DNA from: a virus
Lineage: Duplodnaviria > Caudoviricetes
Virus record (IMG/VR): IMGVR_UViG_3300005529_000039
Location: 1 to 61,333 of that record
Reading direction: 5' to 3' (one strand)
DNA length: 61,333 nt
The notes beneath the pieces were generated by a model that was given only the letters and a program-made list of their open reading frames with translations, searched no databases and was not told where the DNA came from. A program made the position numbers and the translations under genes. This document shows positions 3,207-61,169 of this stretch, piece by piece (position 1 is the first letter of the stretch; every line of letters begins with the position of its first letter).

Positions 3207-3284
3207 TGGGTGCAGAGACGGGAGTCGAACCCGCTATCTCGGCGTTATGAGCGCCGCGTGATCAATCCGTTTCACTCCTCTGCG
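3207..3284 (-). tRNA. tRNA with CAT anticodon (fMet-like, C1:A72 mismatch)
   Basis: Full cloverleaf: acceptor CGCAGAG/CTCTGCA, D stem GTGA/TCAC, anticodon arm CGGCG-CTCATAA-CGCCG, T arm GCGGG-TTCGACT-CCCGT, encoded CCA. Confidence 0.9.
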
Positions 3285-11227: not shown

Positions 11228-11578
11228 GTGATTGTCTACGACGAAAACATGGTGCAGATTCGCTGCGGGGATTCGCGGGATCTGTTACGCGAGTTGCCTT
11301 CGGAATCCGTTCACTGTGTCGTGACCTCGCCGCCGTACTGGCGATTGCGGGATTACGGATGCGAAGGCCAGATCGGGCTGGAATCGACGCCTTACGAGTA
11401 CATCTCCACCATGCGGGAAGTGTTCGCGGAAGTTCGGCGGGTTTTACGGGCGGACGGAACGCTGTGGCTGAATATGGGAGACAGCTACAACGCGCATCCG
11501 GGACAACGAACCGTTCACGATAAAGTGCGTTCCACGCGAAATTTCCGCGCGCAGCGCTTTTTAAGGCGCGACTTGTGA
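11228..11578 (+). pseudogene. Truncated N4-C/N6-A DNA methyltransferase (beta class)
   Basis: GDSR..SVHCVVTSPPY..LRDY..QIGLE..LWLNMGDSY, then ends with no SAM-binding DPFxGxG. Confidence 0.75.
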
Positions 11579-11611
11579 GTTGGTGCCCACATTTCAACAC
11601 CTGAATTGTTA

Positions 11612-11640
11612 TTGACAACTCTGCTTAGTTGTCGTACACG
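11612..11640 (+). promoter_or_regulatory. Rightward (late) promoter with palindromic operator
   Basis: TTGACA at 11612 and GACAAC-N8-GTTGTC at 11614-11633. Confidence 0.65.
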
Positions 11641-11852
11641 TATTCCTGTATCCATCTCCTACATGTGAGACGTGCGGCCAGCATGCAGATTCGGTCTCTG
11701 CTGGCCGTGCGGACTTAGCCTTCCGATTCGCGTTGGGAGCTAAGCACGGTACCGCAGCCGTGTGGAAAAGAAGCGCGGTTTAAACCGAATCGCTTTCCAG
11801 CCGCAGTGTCTCTAGCTGCCATCCAGCCTACTTTCCTTCCCAGAGGTTGCCA

Positions 11853-12284
11853 ATGAGACTCACTGTCTGCCATCTGACCAAACGCGAAGCCCGCCGAGCA
11901 GAGCACTGCGACCGAAAGCCCAACTGTGGACACCACGAGCATATTCCCTTGGAGAAAGCCTTCCAGTTGGTGCGCGAGCAAAAGGCACGCTGGGTCAAGG
12001 CGGGATGGTCGATTGTCTGCGAGGTGGTGCACTGGGTAGCGAAACGCTCGGGCAGCGTCAAGGTCATGCAGTTAGTCAGCGGTGATGTTCAAGGAAGCCG
12101 CAGCGCGCATTATCCGGTTCCGGCGCATGGAGCGCGAGGACGCGACACCAAAGTCGCGCAGGTAAATGGCGTACAGCAGCAGGTACCAGGTACCGACAAG
12201 TTTTTGTGGTTGCAGTCAAATTCGGCGCTAAATGCGGGAAAGGAGGTCGCGGAGAATCGCCAGAGCCATTGTCCGGTCTTTTGA
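11853..12284 (+). CDS. Hypothetical protein
   Basis: GAGGT RBS and a protein-like N-terminal half. Confidence 0.5.
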   Translation: MRLTVCHLTKREARRAEHCDRKPNCGHHEHIPLEKAFQLVREQKARWVKAGWSIVCEVVHWVAKRSGSVKVMQLVSGDVQGSRSAHYPVPAHGARGRDTKVAQVNGVQQQVPGTDKFLWLQSNSALNAGKEVAENRQSHCPVF

Positions 12285-12317
12285 GATCGGCCAATGAGTC
12301 GGGGCGACCGACGCGGG

Positions 12318-12557
12318 TTTGGTCACAGAAAGCCGACGTACAGGTTGGACGACTAGCCTGATCCCAAAAAGTCGATCTAGGGATGCGCGACCGCAATATG
12401 GCGCGAAGCCGCGAAAGTTCGAAGGTTCGGCAGGGTGGTCCGGCCACCCCACCAGCTGAATATCGGCGGAAACTGAGGGCCGAACGATCCGTCCGATTTG
12501 AGGACTGGCACAAAGGGCAAGTAGCGACGAAAGGTTGCGGCTCAACCTGTGACCAAA
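12318..12557 (+). ncRNA. Candidate multibranch structured RNA
   Basis: Closing stems TTTGGTCACAG/CTGTGACCAAA and AGCCG/CGGCT enclose about 8 short hairpins. Strand inferred from context. Confidence 0.55.
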
Positions 12558-12574
12558 GATTACCAGAAATATAA

Positions 12575-14287
12575 GTGAAGAAACTTACCCTCCTATCTGT
12601 CCTGTTTTGTTCTTCCCTGTTCCTCCATGCCCAAGTTGTCCCTGTAACCGCGCAATTAGTCGACGGATCAGGTGCAGCTTCGCTGACTTCCTTCCTGCGC
12701 TTCCAGCTTTTTAACTGTGGCAGCAATCTTCCCACCTTGGCCAGTTCCTCGCTGGTAGTGATCAAACAGCAATTTGATCTCAAGCCTGATCCGGTAACCG
12801 GCATCATCACGGGCGACGTAGTCCCGAACGACAAGATCCTCTGCGGCGGAGTGGCGTCAACCTTGTGGACGGTGACGCCCATGAAAGACGCGCTCACGCC
12901 CATGCAGCCCAGCCAGCAGTACGACATCCTGTCCAATGCTGGCACCTTCAATCTCGCGACTGCGATGCCGAGCAATACCGCGCTGGCCGCGCCGGGATTC
13001 GTAATTATCTTCGGCAATCCCACGCAGAGTCAGACGCTCAATCAGCCGGTCGGTACAAAGCTTACTTTCCTGGGTACTTACGATTTCACCCAAGCGACGG
13101 TATTGGGACTCGCGACCAGCGGTGGCAGCGGTGGCGGCCCGTTTGGCACCGTGCCCTGCATTGCCTACTACACCGGTAGCGGCAACTCCTGCGATACCCA
13201 CGCCACACTCGATGGCTTAGGTAATGGAATCTTCAACTCGCTGACGGTAAATGGGGTCGGACTGCAGTCGGTATTGACGCTTGGGGACAACACCTCGCTG
13301 ACCGCGCCCCCGACTGGAACGCTGCTCATTGGTTCACTCAATGGCAGGCCGCAGGCGCTGTTTGGGAATTTGAACTATGGCATGATCGAAACCAGCGACC
13401 AGGAGGGCATCGCGAACGGGATCGCTGGACTGGATGGCAGTGCTTTATTGCCACTTTCGCAGTTAGTTTCAAACCCCGCTTCCTGTAACGGCAGCACCCT
13501 GATCAAAGGCGACCGCACTTGCGGGAGTTCGGGAAGCTCGCCGAGCGTGGTCTCGGTAACCACCAGCACCACATTAGGAGCTTCGAGCGATGGCGCGTTG
13601 GTATTAGCGACCTGTTCGTCGGCCTGCACGATCACGCTGTGGGCAAGCCCGACGAACGGCTACAAAACCACCATTCTCTCGATTGGTTCTTCCACGCCCA
13701 CCATTGCGCTGAATGGCCTGCAATATAACGGCGCGTCCCTGGTTCCAGTGATTTTGCCGGATGTAGCGCTGCCCATCAACTCAAATGGCACTGCATACTT
13801 TGGCAGCGTGCCTTTTACCGCGGGTGCTGGCGTTAGCCTGACCTCTTCCACTAATGGGCTGCAAATCTCCGCCTCAGGCGGTGGCTCAGGCGCGACCATC
13901 ATGCCGTTCACCACTGGCGGCTCGAACGTTTCAAACTCTGCTGTCTCGTTCGTGGGACCAGCAAACGTAAATAGCGCCGAACCGCAGACTCAGTGGCCAG
14001 TGGCCCGCGCGGGCACGGTATCGAACCTACAGTGCCGGATCAATCAGACGATGTCCGGCTCGATGCAGTATACGGTCGTGGTCATGCACGGCCTGGCCTC
14101 GACTAACTCAGCAATCACCACTTCTGCGACCGCGATCACTTGCACCCTGAATAGCACCAACTCTCGCGGCTGCAATGACACCACGCACAGCTTCACGGTT
14201 GCCGCTGGCGACGTACTTGACCTGCAGAGCACGCCAGCCAACACTCCGACGGCCACGAACCTGATCTGCTCGCTACAGCTTCTGTGA
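12575..14287 (+). CDS. Fibre-like protein with signal peptide
   Basis: MKKLTLLSVLFCSSLFLHA-Q, G/S/T-rich, fibre motif GIANGIAGLDGSA. Confidence 0.8.
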   Translation: MKKLTLLSVLFCSSLFLHAQVVPVTAQLVDGSGAASLTSFLRFQLFNCGSNLPTLASSSLVVIKQQFDLKPDPVTGIITGDVVPNDKILCGGVASTLWTVTPMKDALTPMQPSQQYDILSNAGTFNLATAMPSNTALAAPGFVIIFGNPTQSQTLNQPVGTKLTFLGTYDFTQATVLGLATSGGSGGGPFGTVPCIAYYTGSGNSCDTHATLDGLGNGIFNSLTVNGVGLQSVLTLGDNTSLTAPPTGTLLIGSLNGRPQALFGNLNYGMIETSDQEGIANGIAGLDGSALLPLSQLVSNPASCNGSTLIKGDRTCGSSGSSPSVVSVTTSTTLGASSDGALVLATCSSACTITLWASPTNGYKTTILSIGSSTPTIALNGLQYNGASLVPVILPDVALPINSNGTAYFGSVPFTAGAGVSLTSSTNGLQISASGGGSGATIMPFTTGGSNVSNSAVSFVGPANVNSAEPQTQWPVARAGTVSNLQCRINQTMSGSMQYTVVVMHGLASTNSAITTSATAITCTLNSTNSRGCNDTTHSFTVAAGDVLDLQSTPANTPTATNLICSLQLL

Positions 14288-57010: not shown

Positions 57011-57625
57011 ATGAGCGCCGAAACCAAGCGCACAGGGAAATCCACCTCCAAAAGCACCGCTGCCCAACCCGGCTCGAAGAAGAAGCCGCGCCGCAAAAAG
57101 AGCGCCACGCTCGCCGACTACCGCCGGCTGGCCGTCGAATACGTCCTCACCGACGGCAATAAGACCCAATCCTGCATCAACGCCGGTTTCTCGCCTCACT
57201 GCCGCTATTACCTTTTTTCCCTTGAAGTGGTCCGGAACATGATTGATGAGATCAGCAACGACCCCGGATTTATCAAAGGGGTATTTGCCAAGGTCGACCA
57301 AAAAGCGATCGACGACTTCAAGCTCTCGCGCGGCTTTCTCGACAGCAACCTCGCGCACATCATCGTCAACGGATCCACTCACTTCATGCGCGGCGATGCC
57401 GACCGTGTAAAAGCCATCGAGACGGGATACAAAGCGCTGGGCATTATCGAAGCCCCACGAATCGTCAACAACAACCAAGCCAACGCGCAGGCGGCAGCCG
57501 TCGGCGCGACTGCGTTTGAAGTCTACAAATCGCGCTGGAAGCTCGAACGAGAAGAGCGCATGCGCGACCAACTGGACCGCGAAGATGCTAATCGACAACT
57601 CCCCGCAGCCCCCGCTCAGTCCTAG
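57011..57625 (+). CDS. terS: Terminase small subunit
   Basis: EYVLTDGNKTQSCINAGFS..KAIE, upstream of TerL. Confidence 0.75.
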   Translation: MSAETKRTGKSTSKSTAAQPGSKKKPRRKKSATLADYRRLAVEYVLTDGNKTQSCINAGFSPHCRYYLFSLEVVRNMIDEISNDPGFIKGVFAKVDQKAIDDFKLSRGFLDSNLAHIIVNGSTHFMRGDADRVKAIETGYKALGIIEAPRIVNNNQANAQAAAVGATAFEVYKSRWKLEREERMRDQLDREDANRQLPAAPAQS

Positions 57626-59255
57626 CGACGTTCAAGTACTGCCTGATCCTGCCCGGCGCTGGTTGCCTGCATCGGCCGCGCAAAGAGCAGCGCTTGATTG
57701 CTCTGCCGACATCCTGCTCATGGGCGGCAGTCTCGGAAGCTTGAAAACGTCAACCATGCTGGTGGATCTGATTCAAGAGCGTGATTACCCCACCATGCGC
57801 TCGTATTTCTTCCGTCGAACCTACGCCGAAATGGAAGGCGGCGATGGCGCCATCGATCAGTCGATGCGGCTGTTCTCGCAGACTGGCGCCACCTATAACG
57901 GCGCTACCCACACCTGGAAGTGGCCATCGGGAGCGGAATTTTACTTCCGCCACGCCCAGCACGAAAAGGACATTTACCAGTACCAGGGTCATGCCATGTC
58001 AGCCCTCGGCATCGACGAGGTCACCCACTGGCCGGAGAAGATGGTCAAGTACTTGGTTACCCGCAACCGCTGTACAGATCCCAATGTGTTTGTACGAGTA
58101 CGCTTTGGGACCAACCCGGGGAATGTCGGCAACAAGTGGTGTAAGCATGTCTTCTTCAATGGCATCTGCCCGCATTGCCATCCCGATCTTGCTCCGCCAC
58201 CAGGAGTTCCGCGCACCGGCACCACCTGGCTCGACGGGCAGCCGCTGCGGATCGCGCTAGAGAACGGTCAAGTGGTTGACCTTACCGTCGCCTACATTCT
58301 CTCGAGCGTGCGCGATCACAGCATGTACCCAGCGGAGTATCTGGCGAGAATTAAGATGCAATCCCCAGCCACCGCTAAGGCGCTCCTCGAAGGCTGCTGG
58401 GACATCTTCGAAGGCCAGTTCTTTGATGTATTTGAACCCGACCGCGGTATTCGCCTAGAGAACCCACGTCCCGGCACCGGACCTATGGTGGTACCGCGAC
58501 GGCAAATTGGTGAGCAGTGGTGGTGGCCGCGCTGGGTAGCGAGCGATTTCGGGTTTTCTATATCCGTCAGCGCCGCGCATCTTCTTGTGCATCAACCGCA
58601 ATCGCAGGACTGGCCACGCGGCCGAGTTTACGTGGTAGATGAAGTCGAGTGCCAGGAGACCGCGCGCAATTTCGCGGAGCTACTACTGAAGCGTTGGGCG
58701 CTTGGGGACGACGGACGACCCATCGAGCAACGCTGGATGCCGTGGTTTCTTTCGCCTGACTCCTTCCGCGAGATCGGAGTTGGATTCACGCTGGCTGCTC
58801 AGATGAATGAAGTATTGGGAAAGTACGGCATCCAATTTCATCGCGCCGACAATGATCGCGTGGGCGGCGCGATGAAGATGTACTCTGGGTTTGAAACCGG
58901 AGAACTGGTAATTTGCAGTGAGTGCCCGAAAACAATCGCCGCCATCCAGTCTCGTGTGCACGACGACAAAAACGAAAACGATGTCAAGAAAATTCCGGGA
59001 GAGCCGGACGACGACTTTTATGATTCCGCGCGCTACGGGTACAAATCGTGGGAGACCTCGCGCGGAGTGTCGACGCCCCTAAATATCCGCATCGCGGAAA
59101 AACTGGAAAAGGAATTCAAGAACGATTCCACCACGGCCATGTTCAACGCGATGAAAACCGTGGAACAAGAAAAGGCCAAAGAGCAGCCCCAGTTCTACGG
59201 TGGCAGCGCTCGAGCCAGGATTCTCCAAGCGCAAAGGAACCGGGGACGCTCATAA
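57585..59255 (+). CDS. terL: Terminase large subunit
   Basis: Walker A variant MGGSLGSLKT, FRRTY, YQG, IDEVTH, TNPG, LEGCWD, nuclease DFG..DDFYDSARY. Confidence 0.92.
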   Translation: MLIDNSPQPPLSPSDVQVLPDPARRWLPASAAQRAALDCSADILLMGGSLGSLKTSTMLVDLIQERDYPTMRSYFFRRTYAEMEGGDGAIDQSMRLFSQTGATYNGATHTWKWPSGAEFYFRHAQHEKDIYQYQGHAMSALGIDEVTHWPEKMVKYLVTRNRCTDPNVFVRVRFGTNPGNVGNKWCKHVFFNGICPHCHPDLAPPPGVPRTGTTWLDGQPLRIALENGQVVDLTVAYILSSVRDHSMYPAEYLARIKMQSPATAKALLEGCWDIFEGQFFDVFEPDRGIRLENPRPGTGPMVVPRRQIGEQWWWPRWVASDFGFSISVSAAHLLVHQPQSQDWPRGRVYVVDEVECQETARNFAELLLKRWALGDDGRPIEQRWMPWFLSPDSFREIGVGFTLAAQMNEVLGKYGIQFHRADNDRVGGAMKMYSGFETGELVICSECPKTIAAIQSRVHDDKNENDVKKIPGEPDDDFYDSARYGYKSWETSRGVSTPLNIRIAEKLEKEFKNDSTTAMFNAMKTVEQEKAKEQPQFYGGSARARILQAQRNRGRS

Positions 59256-60685: not shown

Positions 60686-60918
60686 GGGGGTCGGACTGCT
60701 CCTTTACAGAACGCGGTATGAGATCGGAAATGAACTTTCATGCCGAAGAGCATACCGCAAAGTAACTATCTGGCATCTGGCACAAAAGTGCTAAGGTTCG
60801 GTGAATTGGCGAACACCGACGGGTTGGGTGCGTTGTGGGTGCACAACTTTGCCATCAAATGTGTGCACTCTATCCTTGCAAGTTGATGTTTTTACAACTG
60901 TTATTAGTTGGCCGAATC

Positions 60919-60968
60919 CAGCCCTGAAAAGGCTGGCGTCGGCGGTTCAACTCCGTCCCTGGCCACCA
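60919..60968 (+). other. attR core: 3' half of tRNA-Phe(GAA)
   Basis: CAGCC-CTGAAAA-GGCTG anticodon arm, GGCGGTTCAACTCCGTC T arm, CCTGGCC-A-CCA. No D arm or 5' acceptor strand. Confidence 0.85.
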
Positions 60969-60997: not shown

Positions 60998-61050
60998 TGG
61001 TCACTTGGTCACAATTGGTCACAATTGATCGGTCACGTTTGGTCACAATT
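60998..61050 (+). repeat. Five (T/C)GGTCAC direct repeats, arm-site-like
   Basis: TGGTCACT, TGGTCACAAT x2, CGGTCACG, TGGTCACAAT. Confidence 0.7.
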
Positions 61051-61169
61051 CAATTGACCAAACGGCTGAGTCCTTCGACAACTCGTTGCTGACTTTCTGG
61101 TACGAACTGCTGGTAGATGTCGAGGGGGCTGGCCCAGCTTTGATTTTTCGCGAACTCCTCCTACAAAAT

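Follow-up and report, generated by a model that had tools for sequence, protein, structure and literature searches.

In the phage analyzed here, a gap of roughly 290 nt separates a small conserved gene from the first gene for a secreted structural ("fibre") protein and is occupied by a 240-nt segment (12318-12557) whose two ends are inverted copies of each other. Is this segment a novel structured RNA, a multibranch molecule with a kissing-loop pseudoknot, as had been proposed in a sequence-only reading, or are its ends sites on the DNA where a protein binds, the alternative raised there? The window, by which we mean the whole stretch of DNA that was analyzed, comprises 61,333 bases from IMG/VR, a virus record that is about 92% complete.

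Genomic setting of the segment

The positions of the features are collected in Table 1. The early genes of the window encode RecT, a YqaJ-type nuclease, a replication initiator, a DUF5131 protein and an N6/N4 methylase that is truncated. A tRNA-Met (CAT) gene is found amid these early genes on the minus strand, at 3209-3283; it is probably phage-encoded and not an attachment site. When the whole window was scanned with the Rfam 15 covariance models, a tRNA at 3210-3284 was the only match. The roughly 270 nt that follow the methylase gene are non-coding, and the interval 11521-11760 folds strongly (z -3.8). Most of the structural genes matched nothing from Pfam or PHROGs.

The small Cys/His-rich protein upstream of the segment has 2 relatives, at 65% and 71% identity. 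Its core, approximately residues 1-80, is conserved, and its non-conserved tail overlaps a 42-nt block that is discussed below. The ESM Atlas gave no usable match to this protein, and a search of viral contigs gave no locus for its relatives. Downstream, the 570-aa protein has 6 partial relatives with 63-79% identity across the N-terminal 225 aa, for which viral and metagenome contigs likewise gave no locus. Its sole cellular relative is a short fragment in a Terriglobia MAG, where the upstream region is different; because this one cellular relative is in a Terriglobia MAG, the host of the phage is probably an acidobacterium. The 570-aa gene is followed by genes for a 1492-aa Ig-domain protein and then for a collagen-repeat protein with tail-fibre PHROG matches.

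As had been noted from the sequence, 17 nt separate the end of the segment from the next gene, whose GTG start is at 12575; by eye, these 17 nt contain no Shine-Dalgarno sequence. The absence of a credible ORF is also borne out. The ORFs in the segment, 46-63 aa long on the plus strand and 47-105 aa on the minus strand, score like out-of-frame sequence, and the codon score of the ORF of 63 aa is -0.24 per codon, compared with +0.31 +/- 0.15 for in-frame 63-codon pieces of real genes. Between 11400 and 12800 we found no intrinsic terminator and no sigma-70-like promoter, the promoter scan being for the sigma-70 consensus only.

Table 1. Features of the window considered in this analysis, with positions and strand.
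Feature	Position	Strand	Remarks
Truncated N6/N4 DNA methylase gene	11228-11578	+	profile positions 1-61 of 221 only; PF01555 match 11309-11515
Small Cys/His-rich protein gene	11853-12284	+	
Degenerate third copy of the repeat, TTTGGTCAGA	11873-11882	-	
Conserved leader element (rsmH-like)	12218-12298	+	AAATTCGGCG, 8-9-nt insertion, 42-nt block, closed hairpin ending CCAATGA
GGAAAGGAGG	within 12218-12298		part of the rsmH-like element
42-nt block	12237-12278	+	starts with GGAAAGGAGGT; 100% identity over all 42 nt to rsmH in 8 Terriglobia species
Hairpin of the conserved element	12267-12296	+	CATTGTCCGG...CCGGCCAATG type stem; -13.4 kcal/mol
Left arm, TTTGGTCACAG	12318-12328		holds the 9-mer TTGGTCACA
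Hairpin 1, CAGGTTGG-ACGA-CTAGCCTG	12341-12360	+	CAGGTT/AGCCTG, mean pair probability 0.97
Hairpin 2, ATCCC, 14-nt loop with AGTCG, GGGAT	12361-12384	+	mean pair probability 0.94
Remainder of the proposed multibranch fold	12385-12546	+	pairings poorly determined; pair probabilities 0.08-0.46
Right arm, CTGTGACCAAA	12547-12557		inverted copy of the left arm
570-aa protein gene	12575-14287	+	GTG start; signal-peptide-like N-terminus
Large terminase gene	57516-59255		
Array of TTGGTCACA-type repeats	61004-61062		3 exact (61005-61047) and 2 partial copies

Folding of the segment and search for relatives

The proposed 11-bp closing helix is present as a perfect 11-nt inverted repeat, TTTGGTCACAG at 12318-28 and CTGTGACCAAA at 12547-57, with 218 nt between the arms. 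On the plus strand the segment folds at -94.9 kcal/mol, with a z-score of -3.44 and an energy equalled in 0 of 200 shuffles, while on the minus strand z is -1.98 and 7 of 200 shuffles fold as well. A folding energy no better than that of shuffled controls had been named as a result that would speak against the RNA. The whole segment has z -3.4 on the plus strand (0/200), without the closing helix z is -2.1, and 2 of 68 background windows are as low as the intact segment. That background consists of 68 other 240-nt windows of the contig, of 85 planned, with 20 shuffles each; their mean z is -0.51 (sd 1.08), with values of -3.4 or lower in 2 of the 68 and of -2 or lower in 5. The dependence on the arms is evident from the z-scores with them (-3.4/-3.6) and without them (-2.1), and the interior, 12329-12546, gives -2.1 on the plus strand and +0.5 on the minus strand. 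The segment is real non-coding phage DNA that is able to fold, but leaving out the closing helix reduces its thermodynamic signal to a modest one. End-to-end closure of spacers was also considered and lends no support, as it is equally common in shuffled spacers.

All of the complementary words cited for the multibranch hairpins are present, but the ensemble is stable only for the closing helix (mean pair probability 0.93), CAGGTT/AGCCTG and ATCCC/GGGAT. The other pairings scored have low ensemble probabilities: GCGC/GCGC 0.08, GGGTGG/CCACCC 0.26, TCGGC/GCCGA 0.16, GTCC/GGAC 0.32 and GTAGC/GTTGC 0.25. Similarly, the words of the AGCCG/CGGCT extension occur at 12331-35 and 12538-42, but with a mean pair probability of only 0.46. 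The two sequences of the suggested kissing loop, CGACT (12350-54) and AGTCG (12370-74), are indeed complementary, but this 5-bp match is not significant: a loop-loop match of 5 bp is found in 0.8% of shuffles of both loops, or about 0.2 when all 28 combinations of the loops of 8 hairpins are considered. It also conflicts with hairpin 1, whose stem takes up the final two bases of CGACT (unpaired probability 0.03 and 0.01).

The family had not been recognised from the sequence, and no Rfam 15 model reaches its gathering score on the segment; in 12100-12700 at E <= 10, the only match is a chance one to DicF, with 14.5 bits against a gathering score of 48. No blastn homologue of 12285-12574 or 12300-12574 was found among 50,697 GenBank phage records, nor was there a homologue of the interior in 10 viral loci that share the DUF5131 gene. 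The 25 viral contigs that share the rsmH-like element (see below) gave matches of only 11-29 nt to the interior, with a best E of 0.8, and 401 Terriglobia genomes gave only a 23-nt exact match and a 27-nt match at 93%, both with unrelated flanks. The exact match, to 12382-12404, lies inside a gene of one Terriglobia genome (G058, reading ...MRDRNMA...); with an E-value of 1.6e-4 per genome, or about 0.06 over the 401 genomes, it is possibly due to chance. When viral contigs were scanned for both arms at a spacing of 205-235 nt, a single match (L013) was obtained; it was rejected as a relative and attributed to chance, because its interior is unrelated and it lies inside a metallophosphoesterase gene. 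Short contigs from three mine-metagenome runs of a different study (X2-X4) cover 12334-12560 with zero differences, and therefore the same phage occurs elsewhere; in run X6 nothing covers the sequence between 12258 and 12677. As an RNA, the segment is an unverified singleton.

These results bear on the possibility that the segment is a cis-acting structured RNA domain in the 5' leader of the late operon, transcribed on the plus strand with the rsmH-like element and controlling the translation or stability of the fibre gene. We regard this as unlikely. Such a domain would accord with the plus-strand z of -3.4 (0/200 shuffles equal), with the strand asymmetry of the interior (-2.1 vs +0.5), with the non-coding codon scores and with a location between a conserved RNA-like element and a GTG that has no Shine-Dalgarno sequence in the preceding 17 nt; having no Rfam match, it would be new. 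However, a singleton with no homologue offers no covariation, and the sole other copies, those in the three mine-metagenome runs, are identical. Moreover, just 3 helices are stable, 2 of 68 background windows fold equally well, the kissing loop is neither significant nor compatible with hairpin 1, and the arm sequence is common to a DNA repeat.

The arms and a repeat of probable attachment sites

Exact copies of the 9-mer TTGGTCACA number 5 in the window, compared with 0.39 expected, and they are confined to the two arms and the array at 61005-61047. This array, as a whole 61004-61062, begins about 40 nt past a tRNA-like 3' fragment ending at 60968 (it spans about 40-95 nt past that end) and is made up of tandem copies phased by 10-12 bp next to the tRNA-like core. 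The fragment, at 60917-60968, resembles the anticodon arm (GAA), T-arm and CCA end of a tRNA-Phe whose 5' half is missing. Its T-arm, acceptor strand and CCA-like part, 60944-60968, are unique in the window and received no ARAGORN gene call. Together, the tRNA-Phe-like fragment and the right-hand array have the appearance of an attP or of a junction with another element, and the integrase for the array would lie past the end of the window.

Tandem copies of TTGGTCACA are present in 9 of the 401 Terriglobia genomes, with 12 matches against 1 for the reversed control. Six of the nine loci have their repeats 30-75 nt from the 3' end of a gene for tRNA-Ser, tRNA-Leu or tmRNA. At the seventh (G370) the repeats start 56 nt past an integrase frame of 444 aa and are followed by a tRNA-like 3' fragment; the last two are a coding repeat in a lysine-rich protein and an intergenic one. 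Viral contigs contained no match to the 19-mer that two such repeats form in tandem. The repeats linked to tRNA or tmRNA genes (L059-L066) are preceded by a shared TTTAGAATCAA-like spacer, and at one of these loci (L060, in G111) two inverted arrays bracket about 160 bp with a tRNA-like core fragment. Judged by position, the TTGGTCACA arrays are probably arm-type protein-binding repeats of integrative elements that target tRNA and tmRNA genes, and from the same positions we infer binding by an Int/Xis-type protein. As probable markers of the attachment arms of such Terriglobia elements, they may help to delimit prophages in a poorly studied soil phylum.

The arms of the segment and the att-associated sites both carry the exact 9-mer. 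It is improbable that an RNA helix would use this 9-mer by accident, and the arms therefore most likely share their origin with the att-associated DNA repeat. Their arrangement differs: in the gene leader each arm is one copy, 219 bp from the other, and not part of a tandem series phased by 10-12 bp beside a tRNA/tmRNA core. The alternative that the arms are protein-binding sites on the DNA is strengthened in so far as TTGGTCACA is shared with att arrays, in tandem near tRNA and tmRNA genes, but no binding protein was identified. Because TTGGTCACA is the repeat found beside tRNA/tmRNA genes and in the right-end array, we tentatively consider protein-binding DNA sites better supported than a novel RNA, at somewhat less than an even chance of being correct. 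Little more can be claimed for the segment itself than that it illustrates how an inverted repeat in DNA, when perfect, may be mistaken for the closing helix of a "novel ncRNA".

Our best explanation, which leans on analogy and is offered as a tentative preference, is a spacer with att-type repeat arms in which regulatory binding is favoured. The 240 nt would be a phage-specific non-coding spacer, and the closing helix would consist of two inverted copies of TTTGGTCACA, 219 bp apart. In Terriglobia mobile elements this sequence forms tandem arrays between the tRNA/tmRNA core and, where it is visible, the integrase gene. The protein that binds the att-arm repeats, either the arm-binding domain of an integrase or an excisionase/Cox/Apl-type factor, might also bind both sites in the leader. 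Two bound sites would then bracket the leader of the late/fibre operon and could tie its expression to the decision between integration and excision, and the internal hairpins would be incidental or at most local mRNA structure. The restriction of the 9-mer to the arms and the right-end array and the heavy dependence of the fold signal on the arms argue for this explanation. It is less easily reconciled with a lone pair of sites 219 bp apart, unlike the att arrays phased by 10-12 bp, or with the strand asymmetry of the interior (z -2.1 on the plus strand vs +0.5 on the minus strand), which it does not predict; nor did the scan for the sigma-70 consensus find a promoter-like site that might be under such control.

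Known phages provide partial parallels. P2 Cox and 186 Apl each act at both the att site and the promoter region of the phage. The present case resembles them in having one short DNA repeat at an attachment site and in a transcription-control region of the same phage, but differs in the two inverted copies 219 bp apart and in that no Cox/Apl/Xis homologue was identified. An attP of the lambda type is about 240 bp long with arm-type repeats in opposite orientation at its ends. The segment is likewise about 240 bp long with oppositely oriented arm-type repeats at both ends; unlike such an attP, it has no adjacent integrase, the prophage is continuous across it, and the sole hint of an attB core is the 23-nt match in 1 of the 401 genomes.

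An inverton, in which a site-specific recombinase flips the 218-bp segment and switches the fibre operon on and off, would also make use of inverted arms. In the fim switch of E. coli, which is an inverton, short inverted repeats surround an invertible segment upstream of surface-structure genes. The likeness to fim is in the short perfect inverted repeats that bracket an intergenic segment of 200-300 bp upstream of such genes; here they are 11 bp long and enclose about 220 bp directly upstream of surface/fibre genes, and the repeat is related to a recombinase-associated motif. Nevertheless we consider an inverton improbable. Unlike the fim case, the window contains no recombinase gene (there is no PF00589 or PF00239 match, and thus no integrase or resolvase) and the segment has no internal promoter, nor any promoter-like or terminator-like site on either strand. 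The record is about 92% complete, and a recombinase gene may therefore lie outside the window. Among the metagenome contigs placed on the window, none of which spans an arm with sufficient flank to be informative, no strand-changing joint and no second orientation was observed.

Nor do we think it likely that the segment lacks a function altogether, as a recombination scar or filler left by the truncation of the methylase and the joining of modules, with arms that are relics of an old att-type site. The upstream methylase is indeed cut at profile position 61 of 221, about 1 kb is mosaic here with a strong fold also in the neighbouring 11521-11760 (z -3.8), and the interior is unique to this phage; yet in the absence of selection an inverted pair that is perfect over 11 bp would be unlikely to last. 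The identity of the sequence in runs of a different study also tells against this, although it shows only that the copies are recent. A MITE was rejected, as the segment is single copy in the window, its interior has no match in 401 Terriglobia genomes and there is no target-site duplication: the flanks, ...GCGGG and GATTA..., have no direct repeat by eye.

The rsmH-like element of the leader

The rsmH-like element ends 19 nt upstream of the segment and is a well-supported feature of the leader, more novel than the segment itself. It is the only part of the leader under demonstrable selection. The window carries the motif AAAGGAGGnnGCGGArAATCGCCAGAGCCA (12239-12268), followed by the stable hairpin at 12267-12296, and when metagenome contigs are placed on the window, a patch of about 40 nt (12237-12276) is covered to a depth of 55-616, far above its surroundings. 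Of 301 Terriglobia genomes sampled, 87 have a match to the 42-nt block, with 82-100% identity. Eleven host loci were inspected, and in each of them the block is inside rsmH/mraW, the gene of a 16S rRNA methyltransferase; one of these genes was checked against Pfam (PF01795, E 3e-100). Within rsmH the block encodes GEERRSRRIARAIVRSRP, and the flanking codons vary. The window contains nothing of rsmH beyond the block. A degraded rsmH or methylase pseudogene underlying the region was rejected, since there is no PF01795 match and PF01555 matches only 11309-11515. A pattern scan located the block in 25 more viral contigs, in 26 copies at non-coding positions (leaders or 3' ends); a similar scan of metagenome contigs for the block plus TTTGGTCACA had no matches. 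A structured element embedded in rsmH is thus conserved at the nucleotide level across species and has been copied to at least 26 phage contigs, where it lies in non-coding leaders.

Like the window, 15 of the viral contigs (13 distinct sequences) have a hairpin with the base CAUUGUCCGG / CCGGCCAAUG after the block. The distal part of these hairpins is variable in sequence and in length (17-104 nt, -2.6 to -50.8 kcal/mol). The remaining 10 viral contigs have a different hairpin directly after the block, followed in 7 of the 10 by a T run (by eye). Ten distinct host rsmH sequences have a hairpin of 73-74 nt in the same place, within the coding sequence, at -36 to -50 kcal/mol. Among 24 distinct sequences the basal stem pairs at positions 1-5 in 23-24 and at positions 7-10 in 17-22, while the mismatch at position 6 is conserved, 21 of the 24 sequences being unpaired there. 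Changes in the stem that keep pairing are few and consist of U-A to U-G and, in one viral contig (L050), of G-C to A-U at position 5, C-G to A-U at 8 and G-C to A-U at 9. The conserved AUG of the CCAATGA motif lies paired at the foot of the conserved hairpin; it also opens a 20-codon ORF (12294-12356) that runs into hairpin 1.

The start of the block, GGAAAGGAGGT, is complementary over 11 nt (10 Watson-Crick pairs and one G-U) to the 3' tail of 16S rRNA, ACCTCCTTTCT, of a Terriglobia genome. Since the element opens with the complement of this tail, its role could be to capture 30S subunits, to stabilise the message or to mimic a regulatory target of the host. STAB-SD, in work of Agaisse and Lereclus from 1996, is reportedly a 5' stabiliser of the cryIIIA mRNA of Bacillus thuringiensis. 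The rsmH-like element resembles STAB-SD in its complementarity to the 16S 3' tail ACCTCCTTTCT; it differs in the approximately 30 further invariant bases and the obligatory hairpin that follow, in its presence also inside the coding region of host rsmH, and in the organisms concerned, which are Acidobacteriota and their phages. By this analogy, a ribosome-binding stabiliser of the STAB-SD kind is one lead to its function. Another is a standby site serving start codons that lack a Shine-Dalgarno sequence, as appears by eye to be the case for several genes downstream of the viral copies, and a third lead is mimicry of a host regulatory target. If the element acts as an RNA signal, it would link late gene expression of the phage to a host element that heads the cell-division operon.

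No Rfam model matches the element (12100-12700 was scanned), and no description of it was found in the literature searched. In Weinberg 2010 (PMC2864571), Acido-1 and Acido-Lenti-1 are Acidobacteria motifs among candidate structured RNAs, and the mraW motif belongs to 5' UTRs of Actinomycetales. These are likewise candidate structured RNAs linked to Acidobacteria or to mraW/rsmH, but apart from the chance match to DicF no Rfam model matches 12100-12700 at E <= 10.

The whole 360-nt leader, 12218-12574, could conceivably be one RNA, in which a module copied from rsmH is joined to a phage-specific 240-nt multibranch domain and serves the GTG fibre gene, a proposal that we rate as rather improbable. 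If true, it would define a new class of phage leader that mimics host mRNA, and would imply an unrecognised RNA element inside a housekeeping gene that heads the cell-division operon.

Two further occurrences of the element were observed. One host genome has a second, truncated rsmH with the block (L030, G282:C2:411350-415390), about 650 kb from the intact gene. In one viral contig the element and its downstream spacer are tandemly duplicated, with the copies 255 nt apart (L051, 7599-7883).
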